This document shows, piece by piece, positions 10,732 through 35,682 of a stretch of DNA of 58,606 bases (its first letter is position 1; the number at the start of each line of letters is the position of its first letter). The DNA lies in IMG/VR virus record IMGVR_UViG_3300027844_000607, positions 1-58,606 of that record. One strand, 5' to 3'. A program made the translations under genes and the position numbers. The notes under the pieces are model-generated. The model did not search any database and was not told where the DNA came from. It was given only the letters and a program-made list of their open reading frames with translations. Source of the DNA: a virus (Duplodnaviria > Caudoviricetes).

Positions 10732-12075
10732 ATGGCAGAATTTCTGACCGAAGACGTAAAGAAGAAGTGGGCAAAGGTTCTCGATCACCCGGATCTTCCA
10801 CCGATCAAAGAGTCATGGAAGAAGAAGGTCACTACGGTGATGCTCGAAAACACGGCCCGCGAGATGCAGAAGGCGGGCGAAGTCATGACAGAAGCCGCTC
10901 CTGCCAACCAGTCTGGTGTGTTCCCGTCTGCGACGAACCTAAAGGGATTTGATCCGATTCTCATCTCCTTGATTCGTCGTGCGATGCCGAACTTGATCGC
11001 ATACGATTTGTGCGGCGTCCAGCCAATGACTGGTCCAACCGGCCTCATCTTCGCGATGAAGTCTACGTATACCACGCAGGGTGGAACCGAGGCGCTCTTC
11101 AACGAGGCTAACACTGGGTTTGCGAACTATTCGGGCGGAACCCAGAATGGTAGCGCACCTGCTGGTAATACCTCGCAGTTGGCGACTGATACTGGCGCGG
11201 GAGGTACTTACGAGTACGACTACGTTGGTGGTTCGACCACGTTGCAGGGTGAGTCATGGGGCTCAACGGGATGCACGGCCATTCCCGAGATGGCGTTCTC
11301 TATCGACAAGGTTACGGTTACTGCGAAGACCCGTAAGCTGAAGGCAGAGTATACTATCGAAATCGCGCAGGACTTGAAGGCGGTTCACGGACTCGACGCA
11401 GAGACGGAACTTGCTAACATCCTGTCAGCGGAGATTCTTGCGGAGATTAACCGCGAGATTATTCGTACGATTTACGTGAGCGCCGTCGCGGGTGCGAACA
11501 CGAACACCACAACGGCTGGTGTGTTCGACCTCGACACGGACTCAGACGGACGCTGGATGGTTGAGCGATTTAAGGGGCTCTTCTTCCAGATTGAACGCGA
11601 TGCGAACGCCATCGCGAAGGCGACTCGTCGTGGTAAGGGGAACATCGTTCTCTGCTCGTCAGATATTGCGAGTGCCCTTGCTGCTGCGGACTATCTCCAC
11701 TATGATAGCGCCTATGACGGTAAGCTACAGGTAGATGACACGGGTTCAACCTTTGTCGGTACCTTGCAGGGTCGTTACAAGGTGTACATTGACCCGTATG
11801 CTGCGATTTCCGCAGACTCTAGCACGGCTCAGCACTTCGTGGTTGGGTATCGTGGTAGCAGCCCGTATGACGCAGGACTTTTCTACTGCCCGTACGTTCC
11901 GCTACAGATGCTCCGCGCTCAGGATCCGAACAGCTTCCAGCCGAAGATCGGATTCCAGACGCGGTATGGTGTCGTTTCTAACCCGTTCAGCAACGCGGCT
12001 GGGACGAGCGATGGTTCTATCACCGCTCGCGCTAACCAGTACTACAGGGTTGTGAACGTTCGCAACTTGATGTAA
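10732..12075 (+). CDS. gp23: Major capsid protein
   Basis: DPILISLIRRAMPNLIAYDLCGVQPMTGPTGLIFAM, LAQDLKAVHGLDAE-like segment, FYCPYVPL and FQPKIGF motifs; probable maturation site VMTE/AAP. Confidence 0.98.
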   Translation: MAEFLTEDVKKKWAKVLDHPDLPPIKESWKKKVTTVMLENTAREMQKAGEVMTEAAPANQSGVFPSATNLKGFDPILISLIRRAMPNLIAYDLCGVQPMTGPTGLIFAMKSTYTTQGGTEALFNEANTGFANYSGGTQNGSAPAGNTSQLATDTGAGGTYEYDYVGGSTTLQGESWGSTGCTAIPEMAFSIDKVTVTAKTRKLKAEYTIEIAQDLKAVHGLDAETELANILSAEILAEINREIIRTIYVSAVAGANTNTTTAGVFDLDTDSDGRWMVERFKGLFFQIERDANAIAKATRRGKGNIVLCSSDIASALAAADYLHYDSAYDGKLQVDDTGSTFVGTLQGRYKVYIDPYAAISADSSTAQHFVVGYRGSSPYDAGLFYCPYVPLQMLRAQDPNSFQPKIGFQTRYGVVSNPFSNAAGTSDGSITARANQYYRVVNVRNLM

Positions 12076-12107
12076 GTTCGCTTAACGATTCGCTACCGTT
12101 AGGATTG

Positions 12108-12140
12108 CCCCTGAGAGGTTCGCCTCTCAGGGGTTTTTTT
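12108..12140 (+). terminator. Rho-independent terminator after gp23
   Basis: CCCCTGAGAGG-TTCG-CCTCTCAGGGG perfect 11-bp stem with UUCG loop, followed by a T7 run. Confidence 0.92.
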
Positions 12141-12142
12141 GT

Positions 12143-13507
12143 CTATGGCCATGACTCTAGTAGATGATCAAAGTGCGTTTCCGCTTCGCCATAAAACTTA
12201 AAGATTGACAGCATAACAAAGGTGTTTTTTATTGATTGTAGTTTAGATGGGGTCATGGGATTCACATCATCAAAATACACGCCAATGTTATTGGCATAGG
12301 GAATGAAAAAGAAAATAAAAAACTTAAAAGCCGTCAGATAATTAAACGTGATCCTCGAATTGATTAAAATAGTGCCTCTCGCAAATTTATGTTTCATCAA
12401 AAACATGAATGTCTCCGAGGATACCGCTATGTCATACGAATCCTCTGGCCCAAGTTCCACAAATCTTCGTGACGATAAATGTATTTCAAACACTTTGTGT
12501 AGATCTGACACCAAGACCTTGAGAGAAAATTCATGTTTATTTTTTGGCAGGGTATTGTTGGTGAGCAAACTGTCATGAAACGCATAATATGATTGTTCAA
12601 GATCAGAGATATTTGAAATCGTGTTCGTGGTATGTTTAATTTCGACGGCATCATGGAGATGCGACCAATACGCGATAGACTTTTTGCTGTTCAGATGGGT
12701 GTGTTGTGCATCAAGTTCTCTGGATAAATCGAATGCCTCATTCGGCATGGGCACAATTGGTATCACATCGTTGTTCAGGTTTTTGATCGTGTCATAGGCA
12801 TGGTGAATATACTGATTGTCATTCCAATAAAAATTCTCTTCGTGTGAAAAGAACACATAGCTGGCAAACAATAAACACGACTTTGGATTGAGCGTCTGTA
12901 CGATGTATTTATTTTTTTCATCTATTAGTTTTTGCTGACCAATTGATATCTTTTGATCCCCCGGATTCCCTGCCCAGTTCGCATACGAAAATTGAAAAGA
13001 CACCATATCAAGTTTTCTATTATGTAAGTGAGGAAGGATTTCTTTTTCTAGGGCGTTGTTTACATCGACTCTTGCATCATTCACATTTAAGAAGGAATGA
13101 CCATTTTCGAATAAGCACAAGATAGAGGAATCATAACCATCAGACACAAATGAAACTATCTGGAGATCATCGATAGTCACGTTTTGGTTATGAGGCAGTT
13201 CAATGACTTGATGTCCTTGAGATTCAAGAAAATTCTTAACTTTTTTATCTACGGTTTCCTGATATAAAAACTTTGTTTTTGTATGCAGGTCTTTCAACGT
13301 AGGTATTGAAAAATGATCTGGATGCTCATGTGAGATCCAGATATAGTCAAAGTCTACGTTGTTGATATCATGAGAATTTTCACATAACAACGACCATCCA
13401 TCTTGAAAGGCCGTGCCTTTGAACCACGGGTCGCAGAGGATTTTTATTTCATTGGTTTCAATGATTAGGGAAGCATGATTCAAAAATCGTACGTTGCTTG
13501 GGTTCAT
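12143..13507 (-). CDS. MBL-fold metallo-hydrolase (UlaG/CMP-Neu5Ac hydroxylase-like)
   Basis: FLNHAS, CDPWFKGTAFQDGW and ISHEHPDH (HxHxDH); visibly more AT-rich than its flanks. Confidence 0.7.
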   Translation of the reverse strand: MNPSNVRFLNHASLIIETNEIKILCDPWFKGTAFQDGWSLLCENSHDINNVDFDYIWISHEHPDHFSIPTLKDLHTKTKFLYQETVDKKVKNFLESQGHQVIELPHNQNVTIDDLQIVSFVSDGYDSSILCLFENGHSFLNVNDARVDVNNALEKEILPHLHNRKLDMVSFQFSYANWAGNPGDQKISIGQQKLIDEKNKYIVQTLNPKSCLLFASYVFFSHEENFYWNDNQYIHHAYDTIKNLNNDVIPIVPMPNEAFDLSRELDAQHTHLNSKKSIAYWSHLHDAVEIKHTTNTISNISDLEQSYYAFHDSLLTNNTLPKNKHEFSLKVLVSDLHKVFEIHLSSRRFVELGPEDSYDIAVSSETFMFLMKHKFARGTILINSRITFNYLTAFKFFIFFFIPYANNIGVYFDDVNPMTPSKLQSIKNTFVMLSIFKFYGEAETHFDHLLESWP

Positions 13508-13608
13508 GTTGTCTATGTTAGAGAGTACACCCCGTACAGGCGGACCAACTAGCGTAGGTGAAGATCGCGAGTGATACTAAGATTATGGCCCATCGTATTG
13601 ATTGCATA

Positions 13609-15264
13609 TTATGATTTCCAAAACACATGTACAGGTTCATATTTCATAATTTTTCCATTCTCTAGTTTGAGATAATTCTTCGCTGTTGCTTTGCCGTCTT
13701 CCGTCACACGATTCGCTCCGGGCATGTTCATGAGTGCCATGAGAATAGTTTCCTTGTATTCAAACCCAAGTTCTTTTGCAATCGCAATGCTATCCTGCTC
13801 CAACGGTAGATACGTCTTTCCTACCTTCAAGTCTGCAATGTTCCAGAGCATATACCGTTCGTGGTTCAGGAAGTCATACGCATTCTGCAACGTCGGGCGC
13901 AGGAAGTGATCACGCCATTCACCGTAGGTTGTATACTTCTTATAGCTCTGGTTCTCATCCTCGCTATACGCCTCACGATTGAAATACGGTGGTGACGAGA
14001 ACACCAAGTCGCCGCGGCCCTTGAGCAGCTTGAAGGCCGGCGTCGTGTGGAAAAGCTCACTCCCAAGTTGGTACACATGCGACCGATGCTCTTTTTCTTC
14101 GTCCTTATACAACGACCCATCACCCGTCGATGACTCGATGCGTACTTTGTTATATGCGTCGGCAATAACACGATAGATACTCGTACCGTCTTTATAGAAG
14201 GCGGGATTCGGATCAGTGCCGACATAGTTCAAATGTTGCATGTCACCATTCGGTAGCTGTTGGTTGAATGACATCGCACCAATAAGGCGCCCCGCCCAGC
14301 CCGCCGAGGGATCCCACACGTTGACCGCTTGCGCCTTGACGTGCTGGAGGAACGTTTGATAAAGCAGCTTCGCGGTCAACGGTGGGTAGTTTACCGCATA
14401 CTGACACATCGAAATACGAAAGCTCCGAAACAGATTCGGAAACAACCGTTGTCCCTTGTCATAAATGCGGATATGGAATTCGTGTTCTGAATTCTCATGT
14501 TTCGGAAGAATGTTTCGACGTGTGATCAATGGCAACCAGCCGCGTGATAACGCATTACTGAATTCGTCAAACGACAACGCCATCAGAGTTTCAGTTCGCA
14601 TTTTATCATTGTAACCGGAATATTGCGTTTCTTTATTCACGGGCTTCGCTTCTAACAACAACTCTTGTTCGCCATACTTTCGTTCATGCACATGAAACAA
14701 TTCAACGAACTGGATAGCGGTGGCGGGTACCACCTCAGAGCGATGTTTCAGCGCCGTACCGCCCGTCACGGTCAATGCACACATGTAGAAGCTATCACGC
14801 AAGAAATGACGACGAGCGTACGGCAAATATCGTTTGAACAACTCTGGACTCGCGAAGAAATTGTAAATACTCCGGCCGTCATCTTTCGCCGTGTAATTGA
14901 TGCGAGTCTTGTACATCTCCGAGGCGTGCCAGGCGTTCACCGCACTCCCCGTGCTAACGTGCGTATTATGAATGACTCGCCGGTTAGTCAGTGTGTCGTT
15001 CTTCCAGAACTTCCCCGTAACAAAACCCGCCAGCTTCGAGAAGTCCTTGTCAATTTCACCTAGTGTCCACCCGCGGCGTGGCGGAATGCTCTCTTCGTCC
15101 CAAGACTTCAAGAAGGATTCCCGCATATGAAACACATATGCCTCAAACTCCTTATCTGACATAGCCAGAATATCATCGAACGTGCAGTTCACGGTCGGGT
15201 CGTCTAACAGCGGATGGAGACGTGCTATCGGAAAGATGTCGGTCGTCGTTTCAATAGCTATCAA
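13609..15264 (-). CDS. Large amino-type DNA methyltransferase (probably m4C, possibly m6A)
   Basis: SAM-binding WDPSAGWAGRL followed by catalytic FSSPPYF; 551 aa. Confidence 0.75.
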   Translation of the reverse strand: MIAIETTTDIFPIARLHPLLDDPTVNCTFDDILAMSDKEFEAYVFHMRESFLKSWDEESIPPRRGWTLGEIDKDFSKLAGFVTGKFWKNDTLTNRRVIHNTHVSTGSAVNAWHASEMYKTRINYTAKDDGRSIYNFFASPELFKRYLPYARRHFLRDSFYMCALTVTGGTALKHRSEVVPATAIQFVELFHVHERKYGEQELLLEAKPVNKETQYSGYNDKMRTETLMALSFDEFSNALSRGWLPLITRRNILPKHENSEHEFHIRIYDKGQRLFPNLFRSFRISMCQYAVNYPPLTAKLLYQTFLQHVKAQAVNVWDPSAGWAGRLIGAMSFNQQLPNGDMQHLNYVGTDPNPAFYKDGTSIYRVIADAYNKVRIESSTGDGSLYKDEEKEHRSHVYQLGSELFHTTPAFKLLKGRGDLVFSSPPYFNREAYSEDENQSYKKYTTYGEWRDHFLRPTLQNAYDFLNHERYMLWNIADLKVGKTYLPLEQDSIAIAKELGFEYKETILMALMNMPGANRVTEDGKATAKNYLKLENGKIMKYEPVHVFWKS

Positions 15265-24724: not shown

Positions 24725-25675
24725 TTACTCATCATCATTCAACACATCAGCAAAGAACTTCTTCACATCATCATCATCGTCATCCGCTACCGCGGCTTTT
24801 GGCGCAACGGCTTGCGTGGTTTTTCCCACGGTTGTCGAGGCGCTCTTGGGTTGTACCGCCGGTTTAGAGACTGGGAGTTCGGCGTCTCGCTCGATGGAGT
24901 CTTCGGCGGTTCGGGGGGCGTTTCCGGTGTCACCGAAGAGGGTTCGGTTGAATCGCTTTTCAAGCTCGCTGTAGTCTTTGAACTGCGATTCGTGAGTGAA
25001 CTCCGTGAGTGAGTGTTCCCCCTCCCACGTTGTTTCTTTCTTCGCATCGTCGCCATCAAAAAGTTCAATCGGCTCAGTGAACTCTGACTTGTCATAGTTC
25101 TGATATCCTGCAACTTTCTGAGATTTCAGTTTGAAATCGCATCCTTCCCACAGATCGAACGGGTTTGCCGGCTTCTGATCAGGAAACTGTGGTTCCAAAA
25201 GTTCCATGATCTTCGTGTGGATTCTCGGGCCGTACTTGAACAGAAACGCCGAGCCGTTATTCTCGGGGTGTGCGTCGTCTTCAATAACCAGAATGTTACT
25301 GATGTAACTCTGCTTCCGCTTACGGTCACGGGCGATGCTCTTGTCGGACTCTACACCAGAGTTCCAGAGCTTGTTGTTACCCTTACACACAGGGCACGGC
25401 CGATCCGACAATGTCGTTGGGCAGTTCTCGATGAACCACGATCCCGATTCCGACTTGAATCCGTGAGCAAAGAGACGCGCCCATGGAATTTCTTCACCCT
25501 TTGGGGCAGGCAGAAAGCGAATCTTCGCGAATCCGATGCCCGTCTTGGCGTCTACCGACAGCTTCCAAAAGCGTTCGTCGGCACTACGTTTGGTGCTGGT
25601 TTTCTTGACTTCTTCGGCGAGCTTGGAGAGGAGATCCTTGCGGTTGTTGCGGAGGGTCGTAAAGTTTGTAGCCAT
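24725..25675 (-). CDS. gp32: Single-stranded DNA-binding protein
   Basis: DERFWK, IRFLPA, HGFK...WFIENCPTT..CPVC, NPFDLWEG, NYDKSEF, acidic tail; CTAAATA at 25728-25734. Confidence 0.97.
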   Translation of the reverse strand: MATNFTTLRNNRKDLLSKLAEEVKKTSTKRSADERFWKLSVDAKTGIGFAKIRFLPAPKGEEIPWARLFAHGFKSESGSWFIENCPTTLSDRPCPVCKGNNKLWNSGVESDKSIARDRKRKQSYISNILVIEDDAHPENNGSAFLFKYGPRIHTKIMELLEPQFPDQKPANPFDLWEGCDFKLKSQKVAGYQNYDKSEFTEPIELFDGDDAKKETTWEGEHSLTEFTHESQFKDYSELEKRFNRTLFGDTGNAPRTAEDSIERDAELPVSKPAVQPKSASTTVGKTTQAVAPKAAVADDDDDDVKKFFADVLNDDE

Positions 25676-25734: not shown

Positions 25735-26430
25735 TTACGAGAACAACTGGTATTCTTCCTGCTCTGGCGTGAGTGACGATAGCCGATACGACGCCCAGAA
25801 CGCATCGGCAAGTTTGTGTGTCATCTGCCGCCATGATGGGCGTACCAGATTGAGGAGTTGATCTGCTTTACGAAGGCGCGTCAGCCATGGCATCACACCT
25901 AGTGACGATTTCTTCCCCTCGCGGCGCTCCCAATACACTGGCCAATTATATCCCTTGTCCGGTTGTGGAATCAAGAGCAGGAGACACGCAAGATCCAACG
26001 GCAGGATTCGGCTCATCACTTCGCTGAGACTGGTTGGCATCACGGATCGCTGCCCGTCAATCATCGGTGCGTACAGCCATTCATCCAGCAACCGTGGTTT
26101 CAGGCGTTTCCGCACCTCATAGAGATCGTGTTTCAATACCGTAATCCCGTTCTCTGCGCGAGATGATAACGCAATGCCCGCATCTACCGCCTCGGGCGTG
26201 ACAACATCAGTGATGTACGCAGTTGGCTTGAAGAAGTGTGTCATCAATAACGTGGCATGGATCTGCTCATCGTTGAGCTTGGTCGAGAGTCTGTAGTAGA
26301 ACTGCCTGTCCCGCTGTTGAATGAGCGGGCCGGTTTTGATGTGCCCTCGGTATTTGATGAAGTCGTAGGTGTCGGTGCTGAAGTACATACGGTACGCCTT
26401 CGCCAACGTGAAGACATGTTCTGGCGACAT
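25735..26430 (-). CDS. gp59: Helicase loader
   Basis: YDFIKYRG...RDRQFYYRLS; canonical position between gp33 and gp32. Confidence 0.75.
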   Translation of the reverse strand: MSPEHVFTLAKAYRMYFSTDTYDFIKYRGHIKTGPLIQQRDRQFYYRLSTKLNDEQIHATLLMTHFFKPTAYITDVVTPEAVDAGIALSSRAENGITVLKHDLYEVRKRLKPRLLDEWLYAPMIDGQRSVMPTSLSEVMSRILPLDLACLLLLIPQPDKGYNWPVYWERREGKKSSLGVMPWLTRLRKADQLLNLVRPSWRQMTHKLADAFWASYRLSSLTPEQEEYQLFS

Positions 26431-26666
26431 TAACCGGGCAATTCATTGTTTTTCGGAATCAGGTGGAGCCGTTGGGCATCTTGTGTCAGCCCATATTTGA
26501 TTTTATCACCAATCAATGGCACGACGGCGTCTACGTCGAGTTGTCGCGACTCGCAGTAGTATATGATCGCGTCGATGTACGAGAGCCGTTTCTCAGCCAC
26601 AAGATTCTGAATGTGGAGGGTGAGTTGTTCGGACGTAAGATGTGTCACTGCCATAATGATTCTCAA
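26430..26666 (-). CDS. gp33: Late-transcription co-activator
   Basis: LSYIDAIIYYCE...LIGDKIK...DAQRLHLI; upstream of gp59. Confidence 0.85.
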   Translation of the reverse strand: MRIIMAVTHLTSEQLTLHIQNLVAEKRLSYIDAIIYYCESRQLDVDAVVPLIGDKIKYGLTQDAQRLHLIPKNNELPG

Positions 26667-26669
26667 AAA

Positions 26670-27077
26670 GGTGCTGGTTTCTGTTGCCAGGAGAGCCAGC
26701 GTCCCCGCTACACTATTCCTAGTCTAGCAATTTGCGACCAACTAGGCCGCGAGTGCGAACTGGTTATCAGTTCTGTGTGTCTCTGTTTTACGACAGCGAC
26801 TTGTCGATAGCCTCCCCGCGTTCGCACAGTTCCCGTCGAATCTATTTCGCCCCCATCAAAAAAAGATTAGATAAACTACGCCGCTGAGGAGAAATATATC
26901 CGCGCAAATGGACCATACCATATATGCTCTGAGCAGCCACTTGCTTACCTCTTGGGCTAGGGGGTTCTTCATTGTTAAGCCCCTGTAGTTCTTTTTTCAC
27001 GCTAATCTCCTTTTGGTGGAGGCGGCCGGTACTGCCCCGGCGTCCGAAAACCGTTGTCCGCGCTTCAACGACTACAG
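26670..27077 (-). ncRNA. ssrA: Circularly permuted (two-piece) tmRNA gene: acceptor piece ~27077-27014, intervening segment 27013-26855, coding piece 26854-~26670
   Basis: On the minus strand GGAC-GCCGG-GGCAGTA-CCGGC-CGCCTCC-A-CCA comes BEFORE GGGGGCG-AAATAGATTCGAC. The two form a 7-bp acceptor stem with G3-U70. Tag frame 26771-26742 reads (T)DNQFALAA-stop, and the coding piece ends CCTGGCAACAGAA. Outer ends are approximate. Confidence 0.92.
26856..26972 (-). CDS. 38-aa putative membrane peptide inside the tmRNA intervening segment
   Basis: Translated by hand (below the ORF-track cut-off): MKNPLAQEVSKWLLRAYMVWSICADIFLLSGVVYLIFF; stop falls 1 nt before the tmRNA 5' G. Confidence 0.55.
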   Translation of the reverse strand: MKNPLAQEVSKWLLRAYMVWSICADIFLLSGVVYLIFF

Positions 27078-27082
27078 AAGTA

Positions 27083-27111
27083 ATTATATCACACGCGACG
27101 ACAAATGTCGA
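27083..27111 (-). promoter_or_regulatory. Sigma70-type promoter for the tmRNA gene
   Basis: TCGACA-17 nt-TATAAT with extended TGn. Confidence 0.8.
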
Positions 27112-27116
27112 GGCAC

Positions 27117-27287
27117 CTAGTGTCGGAATACCTCCTTATAAAGCGGCAAGTCTTTGGTACGTTGCTCGACAAGCTCTGCCAATGTGCCATGCGCGGCGTC
27201 CCGCTCAGAGAGAAGCGGAGACTCTACACCTTGCAGATCCGTTCGTTCGGCGTGCAGATGGGTGGTGTCGGGTTTCTCAGCTATCAA
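27117..27287 (-). CDS. Small hypothetical protein (56 aa)
   Basis: TTG-start ORF MIAEKPDTTHLHAERTD...KEVFRH fills the gap between the exonuclease and the tmRNA promoter. Confidence 0.35.
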   Translation of the reverse strand: MIAEKPDTTHLHAERTDLQGVESPLLSERDAAHGTLAELVEQRTKDLPLYKEVFRH

Positions 27288-27293
27288 TGGTAA

Positions 27294-27962
27294 TTACGCC
27301 ACAGATACCGTGGCATGTGTGTAGAAGTAGTTAATCGCTTCGCGCAGTTGATCATAATAGTCCATTGGACGAATTGTAAACACTTGTAACCCCTCTGGAG
27401 ACGCGACAGGAAGCACGACCTGTTTGCACTTCATTCCCGTGCGTTCATACAAGGCGAGTGCGTAGAACGCGCCCTGTACGCAGTAGGACTGAACATACGC
27501 TTCCTTCTTCGGTTTGTTGGATTGCTTGAAGTCTACGATAGACAACACGCCGTCCACTTCCGCAATCAAGTCGGTACGTCCTGCCACCAAGAGTTTGTCG
27601 GAATAGAGATCAACTTCCTGCTCGTAGACGCCGGTAATGTTCGCGTCGAGCCATGGATGGAGGTGTCGCCAGAGTTCCATCACATGTGGCTCGACATCGT
27701 CGATGGGTAAATTGCCGAGATATTCCTCGGCGAGTGTGTGGAGTTTGAGGCCACGCCCTGATGCCGTTTTTGAAACCTGCGCGGCTACCTTTTTCCCGAC
27801 ACGCTTCTGCCATGCTATGAGTTCCGGTTTCGGTTTCGCTCCGAGAACACGCGTGATAGAAGGATAGACCAGTTCAGTGCCTACAACAGAATACACACGA
27901 CCGGTGGTCGAGTTATGCTGTTTGAGCTTGGGGAGTCCGAGCGGCGTATGATGATGAAACAT
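27294..27962 (-). CDS. PD-(D/E)XK exonuclease
   Basis: YPSITRVL, RGLKLHTLAE, AGRTDLIA, IVDFKQS, Q...Y. Confidence 0.88.
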   Translation of the reverse strand: MFHHHTPLGLPKLKQHNSTTGRVYSVVGTELVYPSITRVLGAKPKPELIAWQKRVGKKVAAQVSKTASGRGLKLHTLAEEYLGNLPIDDVEPHVMELWRHLHPWLDANITGVYEQEVDLYSDKLLVAGRTDLIAEVDGVLSIVDFKQSNKPKKEAYVQSYCVQGAFYALALYERTGMKCKQVVLPVASPEGLQVFTIRPMDYYDQLREAINYFYTHATVSVA

Positions 27963-35597: not shown

Positions 35598-35682
35598 TGG
35601 CGGAGAGTGCCGGAATCGAACCGACTACCCGATCACCGAGCGACAGTTTTCAAGACTGCTTGCCACCGTTGGCCTACTCTCC
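35598..35682 (-). tRNA. tRNA-Ser (anticodon UGA), CCA encoded
   Basis: GGAGAGT/ACTCTCC acceptor stem, discriminator G + CCA, anticodon loop CTTGAAA, long variable arm, GGTTCGATTCC T-arm. Confidence 0.9.

Follow-up and report, generated by a model that had tools for sequence, protein, structure and literature searches.

A putative membrane-peptide gene under purifying selection in the intervening segment of a permuted phage tmRNA gene

Genes for transfer-messenger RNA (tmRNA) are annotated as pure RNA genes, and in their permuted, two-piece form the spacer between the pieces is regarded as waste. Two-piece tmRNA genes have been published for the OM43 phage Melnitz and for pelagimyophages, where the passages on ssrA handle it as an RNA gene only and mention no open reading frame (ORF) in the spacer (Buchholz et al. 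2022, PMC9004378). Here we analyse such a gene in a stretch of 58,606 nt (58.6 kb; hereafter the window) that makes up IMG/VR virus record IMGVR_UViG_3300027844_000607, and in particular a 38-codon ORF in its intervening segment (IVS), which probably encodes a small membrane peptide. A preliminary description of the window, made from the letters alone, had proposed a protein-coding gene nested in this segment and knew of no account of such an arrangement. Our literature search agrees: it brought up no report of an ORF in the spacer of a tmRNA gene.

The nearest precedent, as its published account presents it, is the S23p ORF held by the 23S rRNA intervening sequence of Coxiella burnetii. That ORF is decaying and its product is apparently not made in vivo; the sequence is excised by RNase III and the excised RNA is rapidly degraded (Warrier et al. 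2016, PMC4990558). Within tmRNA genes, group I introns carry LAGLIDADG homing-endonuclease genes in 36 of 883 intron forms, according to a tmRNA database paper of 2025 (PMC11915505). The same text gives a tRNA-Ala gene or a repeat element in the spacers of permuted genes as special cases, and the words 'open reading' occur in it 0 times.

Coding evidence in the intervening segment

The tmRNA gene occupies positions 27115-26670, leader and trailer included, and lies on the minus strand, as do all genes, ORFs and RNA elements of the window given below and the predicted promoter. Its acceptor (tRNA-like 3') piece (27014-27076) comes before its coding (mRNA-like) piece (26670-26854). Because the CCA of the former (27016-27014) ends at 27014 and the latter starts at G26854, the IVS removed on maturation runs from 27013 to 26855 and measures 159 nt, against about 35 nt in the Rfam consensus. 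It contains ORF2 (26856-26972), which starts with ATG, ends with TGA at 26858-26856 and has the product MKNPLAQEVSKWLLRAYMVWSICADIFLLSGVVYLIFF. Only 1 nt separates this stop from G26854, at which the mature coding piece begins. Of 5,000 dinucleotide shuffles of the IVS, 80 give an ATG ORF of at least 38 codons. An ORF of such length is thus only mildly unusual in a single sequence, and the coding case rests on the relatives of the window.

These were gathered from two scans of viral contigs, one for the tmRNA T-arm and acceptor end (set A, at least 120 loci) and one for the junction of acceptor end and AAGGAG (set B, at least 116 loci). In the pooled sets, with W[ST][IV]x[AG]D as the core that identifies the peptide, the matches listed comprised 88 loci with 65 distinct IVS that carry the same peptide. 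ORF2 is intact from ATG to stop in all 65 of them. Its stop is separated from the GGGG of the coding piece by 1 nt in 62, by 0 nt in two and by 12 nt in one, and the frame is kept in length variants of the IVS from 120 to 304 nt. Of the distinct IVS, 35 measure exactly 159 nt and align without gaps (alignment A1). In this alignment the start ATG is invariant, and the other two frames are open in 0/35 and 7/35 sequences. In the part of ORF2 outside the closing stem and the overlapping ORF1 (both described below), column entropy by codon position is 0.51/0.18/0.89. The pooled Nei-Gojobori estimate over 595 pairs gives proportions of nonsynonymous and synonymous differences (pN and pS) of 0.125 and 0.590, and a ratio of the corresponding rates (dN/dS) of about 0.12. 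The length classes also differ in how the ATG is preceded: a Shine-Dalgarno sequence stands immediately before it in the 120-nt class and AGGAG before it in the 177-nt class, against a GGGG 7 nt upstream in the window (26980-26983), which is a possible second ribosome-binding site. These patterns argue, with high confidence, that ORF2 is a genuine small-protein gene under strong purifying selection.

The IVS is closed by a stem of 12 bp, two of them G-U, that is present in the minimum-energy folds of both the IVS alone and the whole precursor. The 5' strand (AAAGGAGAUUAG, 27002-27013) includes the Shine-Dalgarno sequence AAGGAG (27012-27007), and the 3' strand (CUAAUCUUUUUU, 26859-26870) also codes for the last four residues of the peptide, L-I-F-F. 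In alignment A1, 97.9% of the stem cells are paired; columns 18-156 exchange U-A, U-G and C-G, and the same change switches Ile and Val at codon 36. In a sample of 50 distinct IVS collected through the peptide, AAAGGAGA directly follows the CCA in 49, with the Shine-Dalgarno sequence in the stem, and 11-12 of the 12 pairs are formed in 45. The stem is a genuine RNA element and is conserved. A second, smaller pairing is possible between the GGGG upstream of ORF2 and the CCCC of its codons 4-5 (89.7% paired).

One could ask for an explanation of the IVS without a gene, in which an RNA structure or processing signal is conserved and the ORF is incidental. The conserved closing stem and the frequency of equally long ORFs in the shuffled window sequence speak in its favour, yet it is contradicted by several features of the relatives: the periodicity of the codon positions, a dN/dS of 0.12 with a pS of 0.59, the unbroken frame in 65/65 IVS with its invariant ATG, and the copies of the module outside any IVS, which keep the frame. 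The IVS also folds no better than its shuffles (z -0.51). We consider this explanation extremely improbable.

The second frame in the segment tells a different story. ORF1 (26842-27000), a frame of 52 codons with a GTG start 6 nt downstream of the AAGGAG, overlaps the beginning of ORF2, relative to which it lies in the -1 frame. Throughout alignment A1 an NTG stands at IVS position 14 (GTG in 21 sequences, ATG in 11, TTG in three), with the TG invariant, and the frame stays open up to the ATG of ORF2 in 35/35. When columns are shuffled, a mean of 24.4 and a maximum of 32 sequences remain open, and none of 2,000 shuffles reaches 35. The amino-acid sequence is nevertheless free (dN/dS 0.99). In 33 of the 35 sequences ORF1 has 18-23 codons and ends inside ORF2; the long form occurs only in the window and in one contig 97% identical to it, and in the window an AGT>AGC change, silent in ORF2, converts the ORF1 stop TAA to CAA. 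ORF1 is missing from the 120-nt IVS class and retained in all four copies of the module found outside an IVS. From these comparisons we regard the 52-codon GTG ORF as a leader ORF and not a second protein gene. A programmed +1 frameshift joining ORF1 to ORF2 was considered and rejected, given the invariant ATG of ORF2, the unconstrained ORF1 and the class that lacks it.

The preliminary description thus fares well on anatomy: its 12-bp stem (27013-27002 with 26870-26859) is recovered by direct reading and in the minimum-energy folds, and its coordinates are correct for the ATG ORF of 38 residues (26972-26856) with a stop 1 nt before the mature 5' end, and for the 52-codon GTG ORF (27000-26842) with an AAGGAG within the stem. 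Its proposal of a coding gene holds for ORF2 and not for the GTG ORF, since the selection analysis it suggested for both frames separates them (dN/dS 0.12 and 0.99). It had made the idea depend on a conserved frame and on purifying selection in homologous spacers, and ORF2 has both (65/65 intact, dN/dS 0.12).

The peptide and its place in other phages

The peptide combines an amphipathic front with a C-terminal part resembling a transmembrane segment, as first suggested in the preliminary description and now borne out by the hydropathy profile (Kyte-Doolittle maximum over 19 residues of 2.09, residues 19-37) and by the helical wheel. Among 59 sequences, Y17, W20, S21, A24, D25 and G31 are invariant. 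The conserved residues cluster on one face of the helix, between -60 and +80 degrees of the wheel, so that an invariant Y-WS-AD-G stripe would run along one side of the predicted C-terminal transmembrane helix. We therefore predict a tail-anchored membrane peptide that crosses the membrane once and presents one invariant polar face (Y17, W20/S21, A24/D25, G31).

Relatives of the peptide are present in protein collections. A profile search of 1.84 billion representative proteins matched 87 clusters, 18 of them at E<=1e-10, with lengths of 23-118 residues and the domain mostly at the C-terminus. Some of the database proteins have long N-terminal extensions; we rejected these as domains, since they resemble gene calls made too long or translations that read on into the coding piece of the tmRNA. 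With a natural homologue of 48 residues as query, a word-indexed search of 5.8 billion proteins returned 6 clusters, one labelled 'hypothetical protein' and the others nameless. At the nucleotide level, 701 nt of the window had no blastn match among 50,697 phage records. A 17-nt junction pattern searched in genome contigs gave at least 120 loci, of which one carries the peptide family (L303, a contig of 6 kb from a metagenome bin) and the others are chance matches; this search is uninformative on hosts. One genome-derived record (L048) was examined as a candidate bacterial tmRNA and rejected, as it proved to be a contig of a T4-like phage.

To locate the gene independently of its surroundings, we scanned viral contigs for the peptide pattern with no tmRNA sequence required. 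This gave 301 stretches, 286 of which were confirmed by tblastn; the locations that follow are those of the best 80 of the 286. In 74 of these 80 the gene lies inside an IVS with both tmRNA halves, the place where the preliminary description had suggested looking for homologues: 71 were recognised by pattern, one has a variant acceptor end, and two are in an IVS of 380 nt together with a second gene. In two more, the contig end cuts off the upstream side and the coding piece follows the stop. The remaining four are outside an IVS. In one (L387, 1500-1640), leader and peptide module stand just upstream of the tmRNA promoter; in the three others (L408, L410 and L411, at about 1440-1540) the module precedes the acceptor piece, within the 5' leader, and the spacers of L408 and L410 measure only 10 and 47 nt. 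The gene can therefore persist without the closing stem. Leaving aside the two truncated contigs, all 78 copies share the orientation of a tmRNA gene and lie within it or directly upstream of it, and Rfam identified the tmRNA in 7/7 sampled loci.

The spacers themselves vary widely in content. Among the matches listed in the scan for tmRNA ends, IVS lengths range from 4 to 277 nt, with 104 distinct sequences, and in 28 of the 29 IVS of at least 120 nt an ORF in the sense direction covers at least 60% of the segment (antisense, 5/29). We made several observations on individual spacers. In Melnitz (L232, MZ577097), the 142-nt spacer (1364-1505) contains an unannotated ORF behind a GGAG, MFKWLSKTRLVV...IPKYLSG..., which belongs to a different family, has no stop in the spacer and continues 42 nt into the mature coding piece. 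Another contig (L057) shares this family and a third (L101) has a shorter form; the Melnitz record skips locus tags _87 and _88. IVS of 82-86 nt (L156, L161, L139, L168 and others) carry micro-ORFs of 21-23 almost purely hydrophobic residues behind the same AAGGAG, which terminate in ...VFF-stop or ...VFL-stop inside the 3' strand of the closing stem. The 380-nt IVS (L404, 1239-1618, and L405) holds an unrelated ORF and then the peptide module in tandem, with a second ...CCAAAAGGAGATTAATGTGG junction similar to that at the acceptor end, which suggests that the insertion arose by duplication or recombination at the junction site.

Such diversity gives some room to the view that ORF2 is a passive passenger, a real gene lodged in a well-transcribed slot that tolerates insertions. 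The stem would then serve processing only, the Shine-Dalgarno sequence within it would be an economy of space, and translation of the peptide would have no link to maturation or trans-translation. The differing contents of spacers in related phages fit this view, as do the sense ORFs that fill the long ones, the unrelated ORF of the cultured Melnitz, the two modules in tandem and the four copies outside an IVS. Against it, the linkage to tmRNA (78/78) is tighter than a free slot requires, and the placement of the Shine-Dalgarno sequence exactly in the stem (49/50) and of the stop 0-1 nt from the first nucleotide of the coding piece, G1 (64/65), are hard to accept as accidents. We hold the passenger view somewhat unlikely.

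The tmRNA precursor as a candidate messenger

The host gene of this module is a circularly permuted tmRNA gene of the alpha type. The Rfam models RF01849 (alpha_tmRNA) and RF04321 (tmRNA_permuted) match it with 81.5 and 93 bits, above their gathering scores of 50 and 47, the latter match beginning at 27076. By the Rfam alignment and direct reading, the acceptor piece ends in ...GCCUCCACCA, with ...CGCCUCCACCA at 27024-27014. The coding piece starts with GGGGGCG (26854-26848), which provides the G3:U70 pair of the acceptor stem, and its tag frame ends at 26742 with ...TDNQFALAA-stop, a proteolysis signal. The order of acceptor piece with CCA, IVS and coding piece with G1 is that of permuted tmRNA genes. 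ARAGORN did not report a tmRNA gene at 27115-26670, so this annotation program misses the tmRNA of the window entirely.

Upstream lies a predicted sigma-70-type promoter with an extended -10 element (27083-27111; TCGACA, 17 nt, TATAAT, with TG before the -10), which matches the consensus hexamers at 11/12 positions and predicts a precursor start near 27076. A crude consensus scan of 26300-27500 found two promoter-like sites, both on the strand of the tmRNA, and none on the opposite one. Two RNA libraries, from different studies, contain contigs that match the window with zero differences at 26568-27060 and 26566-27029. These contigs bridge the IVS together with its two processing sites. No contig reaches further upstream than 27060, an extent weakly compatible with a precursor that starts at the predicted promoter; stretches of the region that the contigs leave uncovered carry no weight either way. 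Both contigs also stop, without loose ends, at 26566/26568 inside the downstream gene gp33, a weak hint of a transcript end or of a variable site there.

Taken together, we think it probable that the IVS harbours a small-protein gene module for which the tmRNA precursor acts as messenger, and that translation is gated as follows. The precursor would be transcribed from the early-type promoter (27111-27083), and its Shine-Dalgarno sequence would be accessible only on the nascent transcript, for the roughly 145 nt of synthesis that precede the 3' strand of the stem. Ribosomes loaded in this interval would be brought by the leader ORF through the GGGG/CCCC hairpin to the start of the peptide. Because a ribosome finishing the peptide would cover the closing stem and the acceptor stem, translation of ORF2 and tRNA-type processing would be mutually exclusive. 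Once folded and cut, the excised RNA would be a closed hairpin, silent, with its Shine-Dalgarno sequence buried. The peptide would most likely act in the host inner membrane early in infection, where the conserved face may bind, helix to helix, either the peptide itself or a host membrane protein.

Several points weigh against this proposal. The translation of ORF2 is itself deduced from sequence, and the gating and competition steps are read from the anatomy of the locus. The GGGG/CCCC hairpin is almost invariant, which leaves it weak support from covariation. The RNA-library data are assembled contigs, which give neither strand nor ends nor level and possibly include DNA. Four of the best 80 copies of the gene are outside an IVS, and the spacers of related phages hold unrelated small ORFs, which fits a permissive slot equally well. 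Finally, the peptide has no match in Pfam, PHROGs or PADLOC, and tblastn with the window peptide and an AT-rich homologue against the 50,697 phage records gave no match at E<=10 with the low-complexity filter on, so that no cultured phage among these records is known to carry it.

A more ambitious extension makes the precursor a switch governed by ribosome availability: capture of the nascent transcript would yield the peptide and block maturation, and folding and cutting would yield the rescue RNA. The cut spacer would then be silent or close to a non-stop message, and the peptide might be fed into the phage's own tagging system. We judge this extension unlikely. Still less likely, in our view, is an integrated circuit with ribosome rescue in which peptide and tmRNA cooperate. 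It could take the form of sensing free ribosomes, where a captured Shine-Dalgarno sequence gives peptide and delayed tmRNA and an uncaptured one more rescue RNA. Alternatively, the cut RNA, with its stop 1 nt from the 3' end, could behave as a near non-stop message whose product is tagged by tmRNA. The circuit gains from the linkage to tmRNA in three arrangements (in the IVS, in the 5' leader and just upstream of the promoter), from the stop 0-1 nt from the processing site in 64/65 IVS, and from Melnitz and its relative, whose spacer ORF has no stop before that site. It is purely inferential, however, and the unrelated genes that fill the slot in other phages speak against a specific partnership; the position of the stop is also forced by pairing with the purine-rich Shine-Dalgarno strand. 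We thus retain as the probable account the gated small-protein module described above.

Gene neighbourhood and comparison with known systems

The window is a fragment, with a completeness of about one third, of an uncultured marine T4-like myovirus, and the runs in which the stretch is found are seawater and marine metagenomes. Directly downstream of the tmRNA gene lies a gp33-like late-transcription coactivator (26430-26666), followed by a gp59-like helicase loader (25735-26430) and gp32 (24725-25675); upstream is a PD-(D/E)XK exonuclease (27294-27962). All four are T4-type proteins. The gp32 of the window shares no more than about 50% identity with its counterparts in marine cyanophages and in the Methylophilales phage Melnitz. 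We also asked whether the peptide could be a phage holin. Around it there is no lysis cassette: its neighbours, the nuclease, gp33, gp59 and gp32, are genes of replication and transcription, and it has no match in PHROGs.

Some features of the window stand apart from these questions. Between the nuclease gene and the tmRNA promoter there is an ORF of 56 codons (27117-27287) without a Pfam or PHROGs family; in Melnitz the equivalent interval is occupied by two small hypothetical genes. ARAGORN reported a single tRNA in the window, a tRNA-Ser with anticodon tga (35598-35682). The region 12001-14000 has a G+C content of 0.40, against about 0.50 in the rest of the window.

Our results bear first on annotation: the spacer holds a conserved gene that recurs in hundreds of marine phage contigs, and gene callers almost always miss it. 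They suggest that the precursors of stable phage RNAs can double as messengers and that a family of small membrane proteins is concealed there. With its overlapping Shine-Dalgarno sequence, processing helix and stop codon, the locus may also offer a compact model for the competition between translation and RNA processing on one transcript. Should the switch prove right, unlikely as we hold it, the output of a membrane effector would be tied to the translational state of the infected cell.

Among described tmRNA genes, those of Melnitz and the pelagimyophages are closest to that of the window. They share its neighbourhood of PD-(D/E)XK nuclease, tmRNA, gp33, gp59 and gp32, in the same order in Melnitz, together with the Rfam families and an early-type promoter directly upstream. 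Melnitz differs from the window in the family of its unannotated spacer ORF and in the glutamine riboswitch that follows its tmRNA: Rfam finds no such match after the tmRNA of the window. In Melnitz we observed the aptamer (RF01739, 52.8 bits) at 1687-1735, directly after the tmRNA, as published.

Intervening sequences of 23S rRNA with an ORF are known from Leptospira as well as from Coxiella. On its published description, the S23p case of Coxiella resembles the window in that an ORF lies in a stem-closed segment that is cut from the precursor of a stable RNA and absent from the mature molecule. The window differs in the strong purifying selection on its ORF and in the host RNA, a tmRNA cut by tRNA-type enzymes; nor does the peptide belong to the S23p family, as it has no Pfam match. 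The endonucleases of tmRNA introns, as far as they are described, are likewise protein genes nested in a part of the tmRNA gene absent from the mature RNA. They are selfish genes in a self-splicing intron of the T-loop, whereas the window has a 38-residue membrane peptide and no nuclease in the spacer of a permuted gene.

In regulatory logic the locus recalls hok/mok/sok, in which a small hydrophobic peptide is preceded by an overlapping leader ORF and long-range pairing of the 5' and 3' ends buries the ribosome-binding site. By analogy, the window has a hydrophobic peptide, a leader ORF that apparently delivers ribosomes and a fold-back that would bury the ribosome-binding site. It differs in that the crude scan showed no promoter for an antisense RNA, in the lack of sequence similarity and in a fold-back that doubles as the tmRNA processing helix. 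Dual-function RNAs such as SgrS/SgrT and RNAIII/delta-haemolysin also give a functional RNA and a small protein from one transcript. In these, the same mature RNA performs both jobs, whereas in the window the peptide is encoded by the piece that maturation removes. The case of the window is that of a gene inside the discarded part of a stable-RNA precursor.

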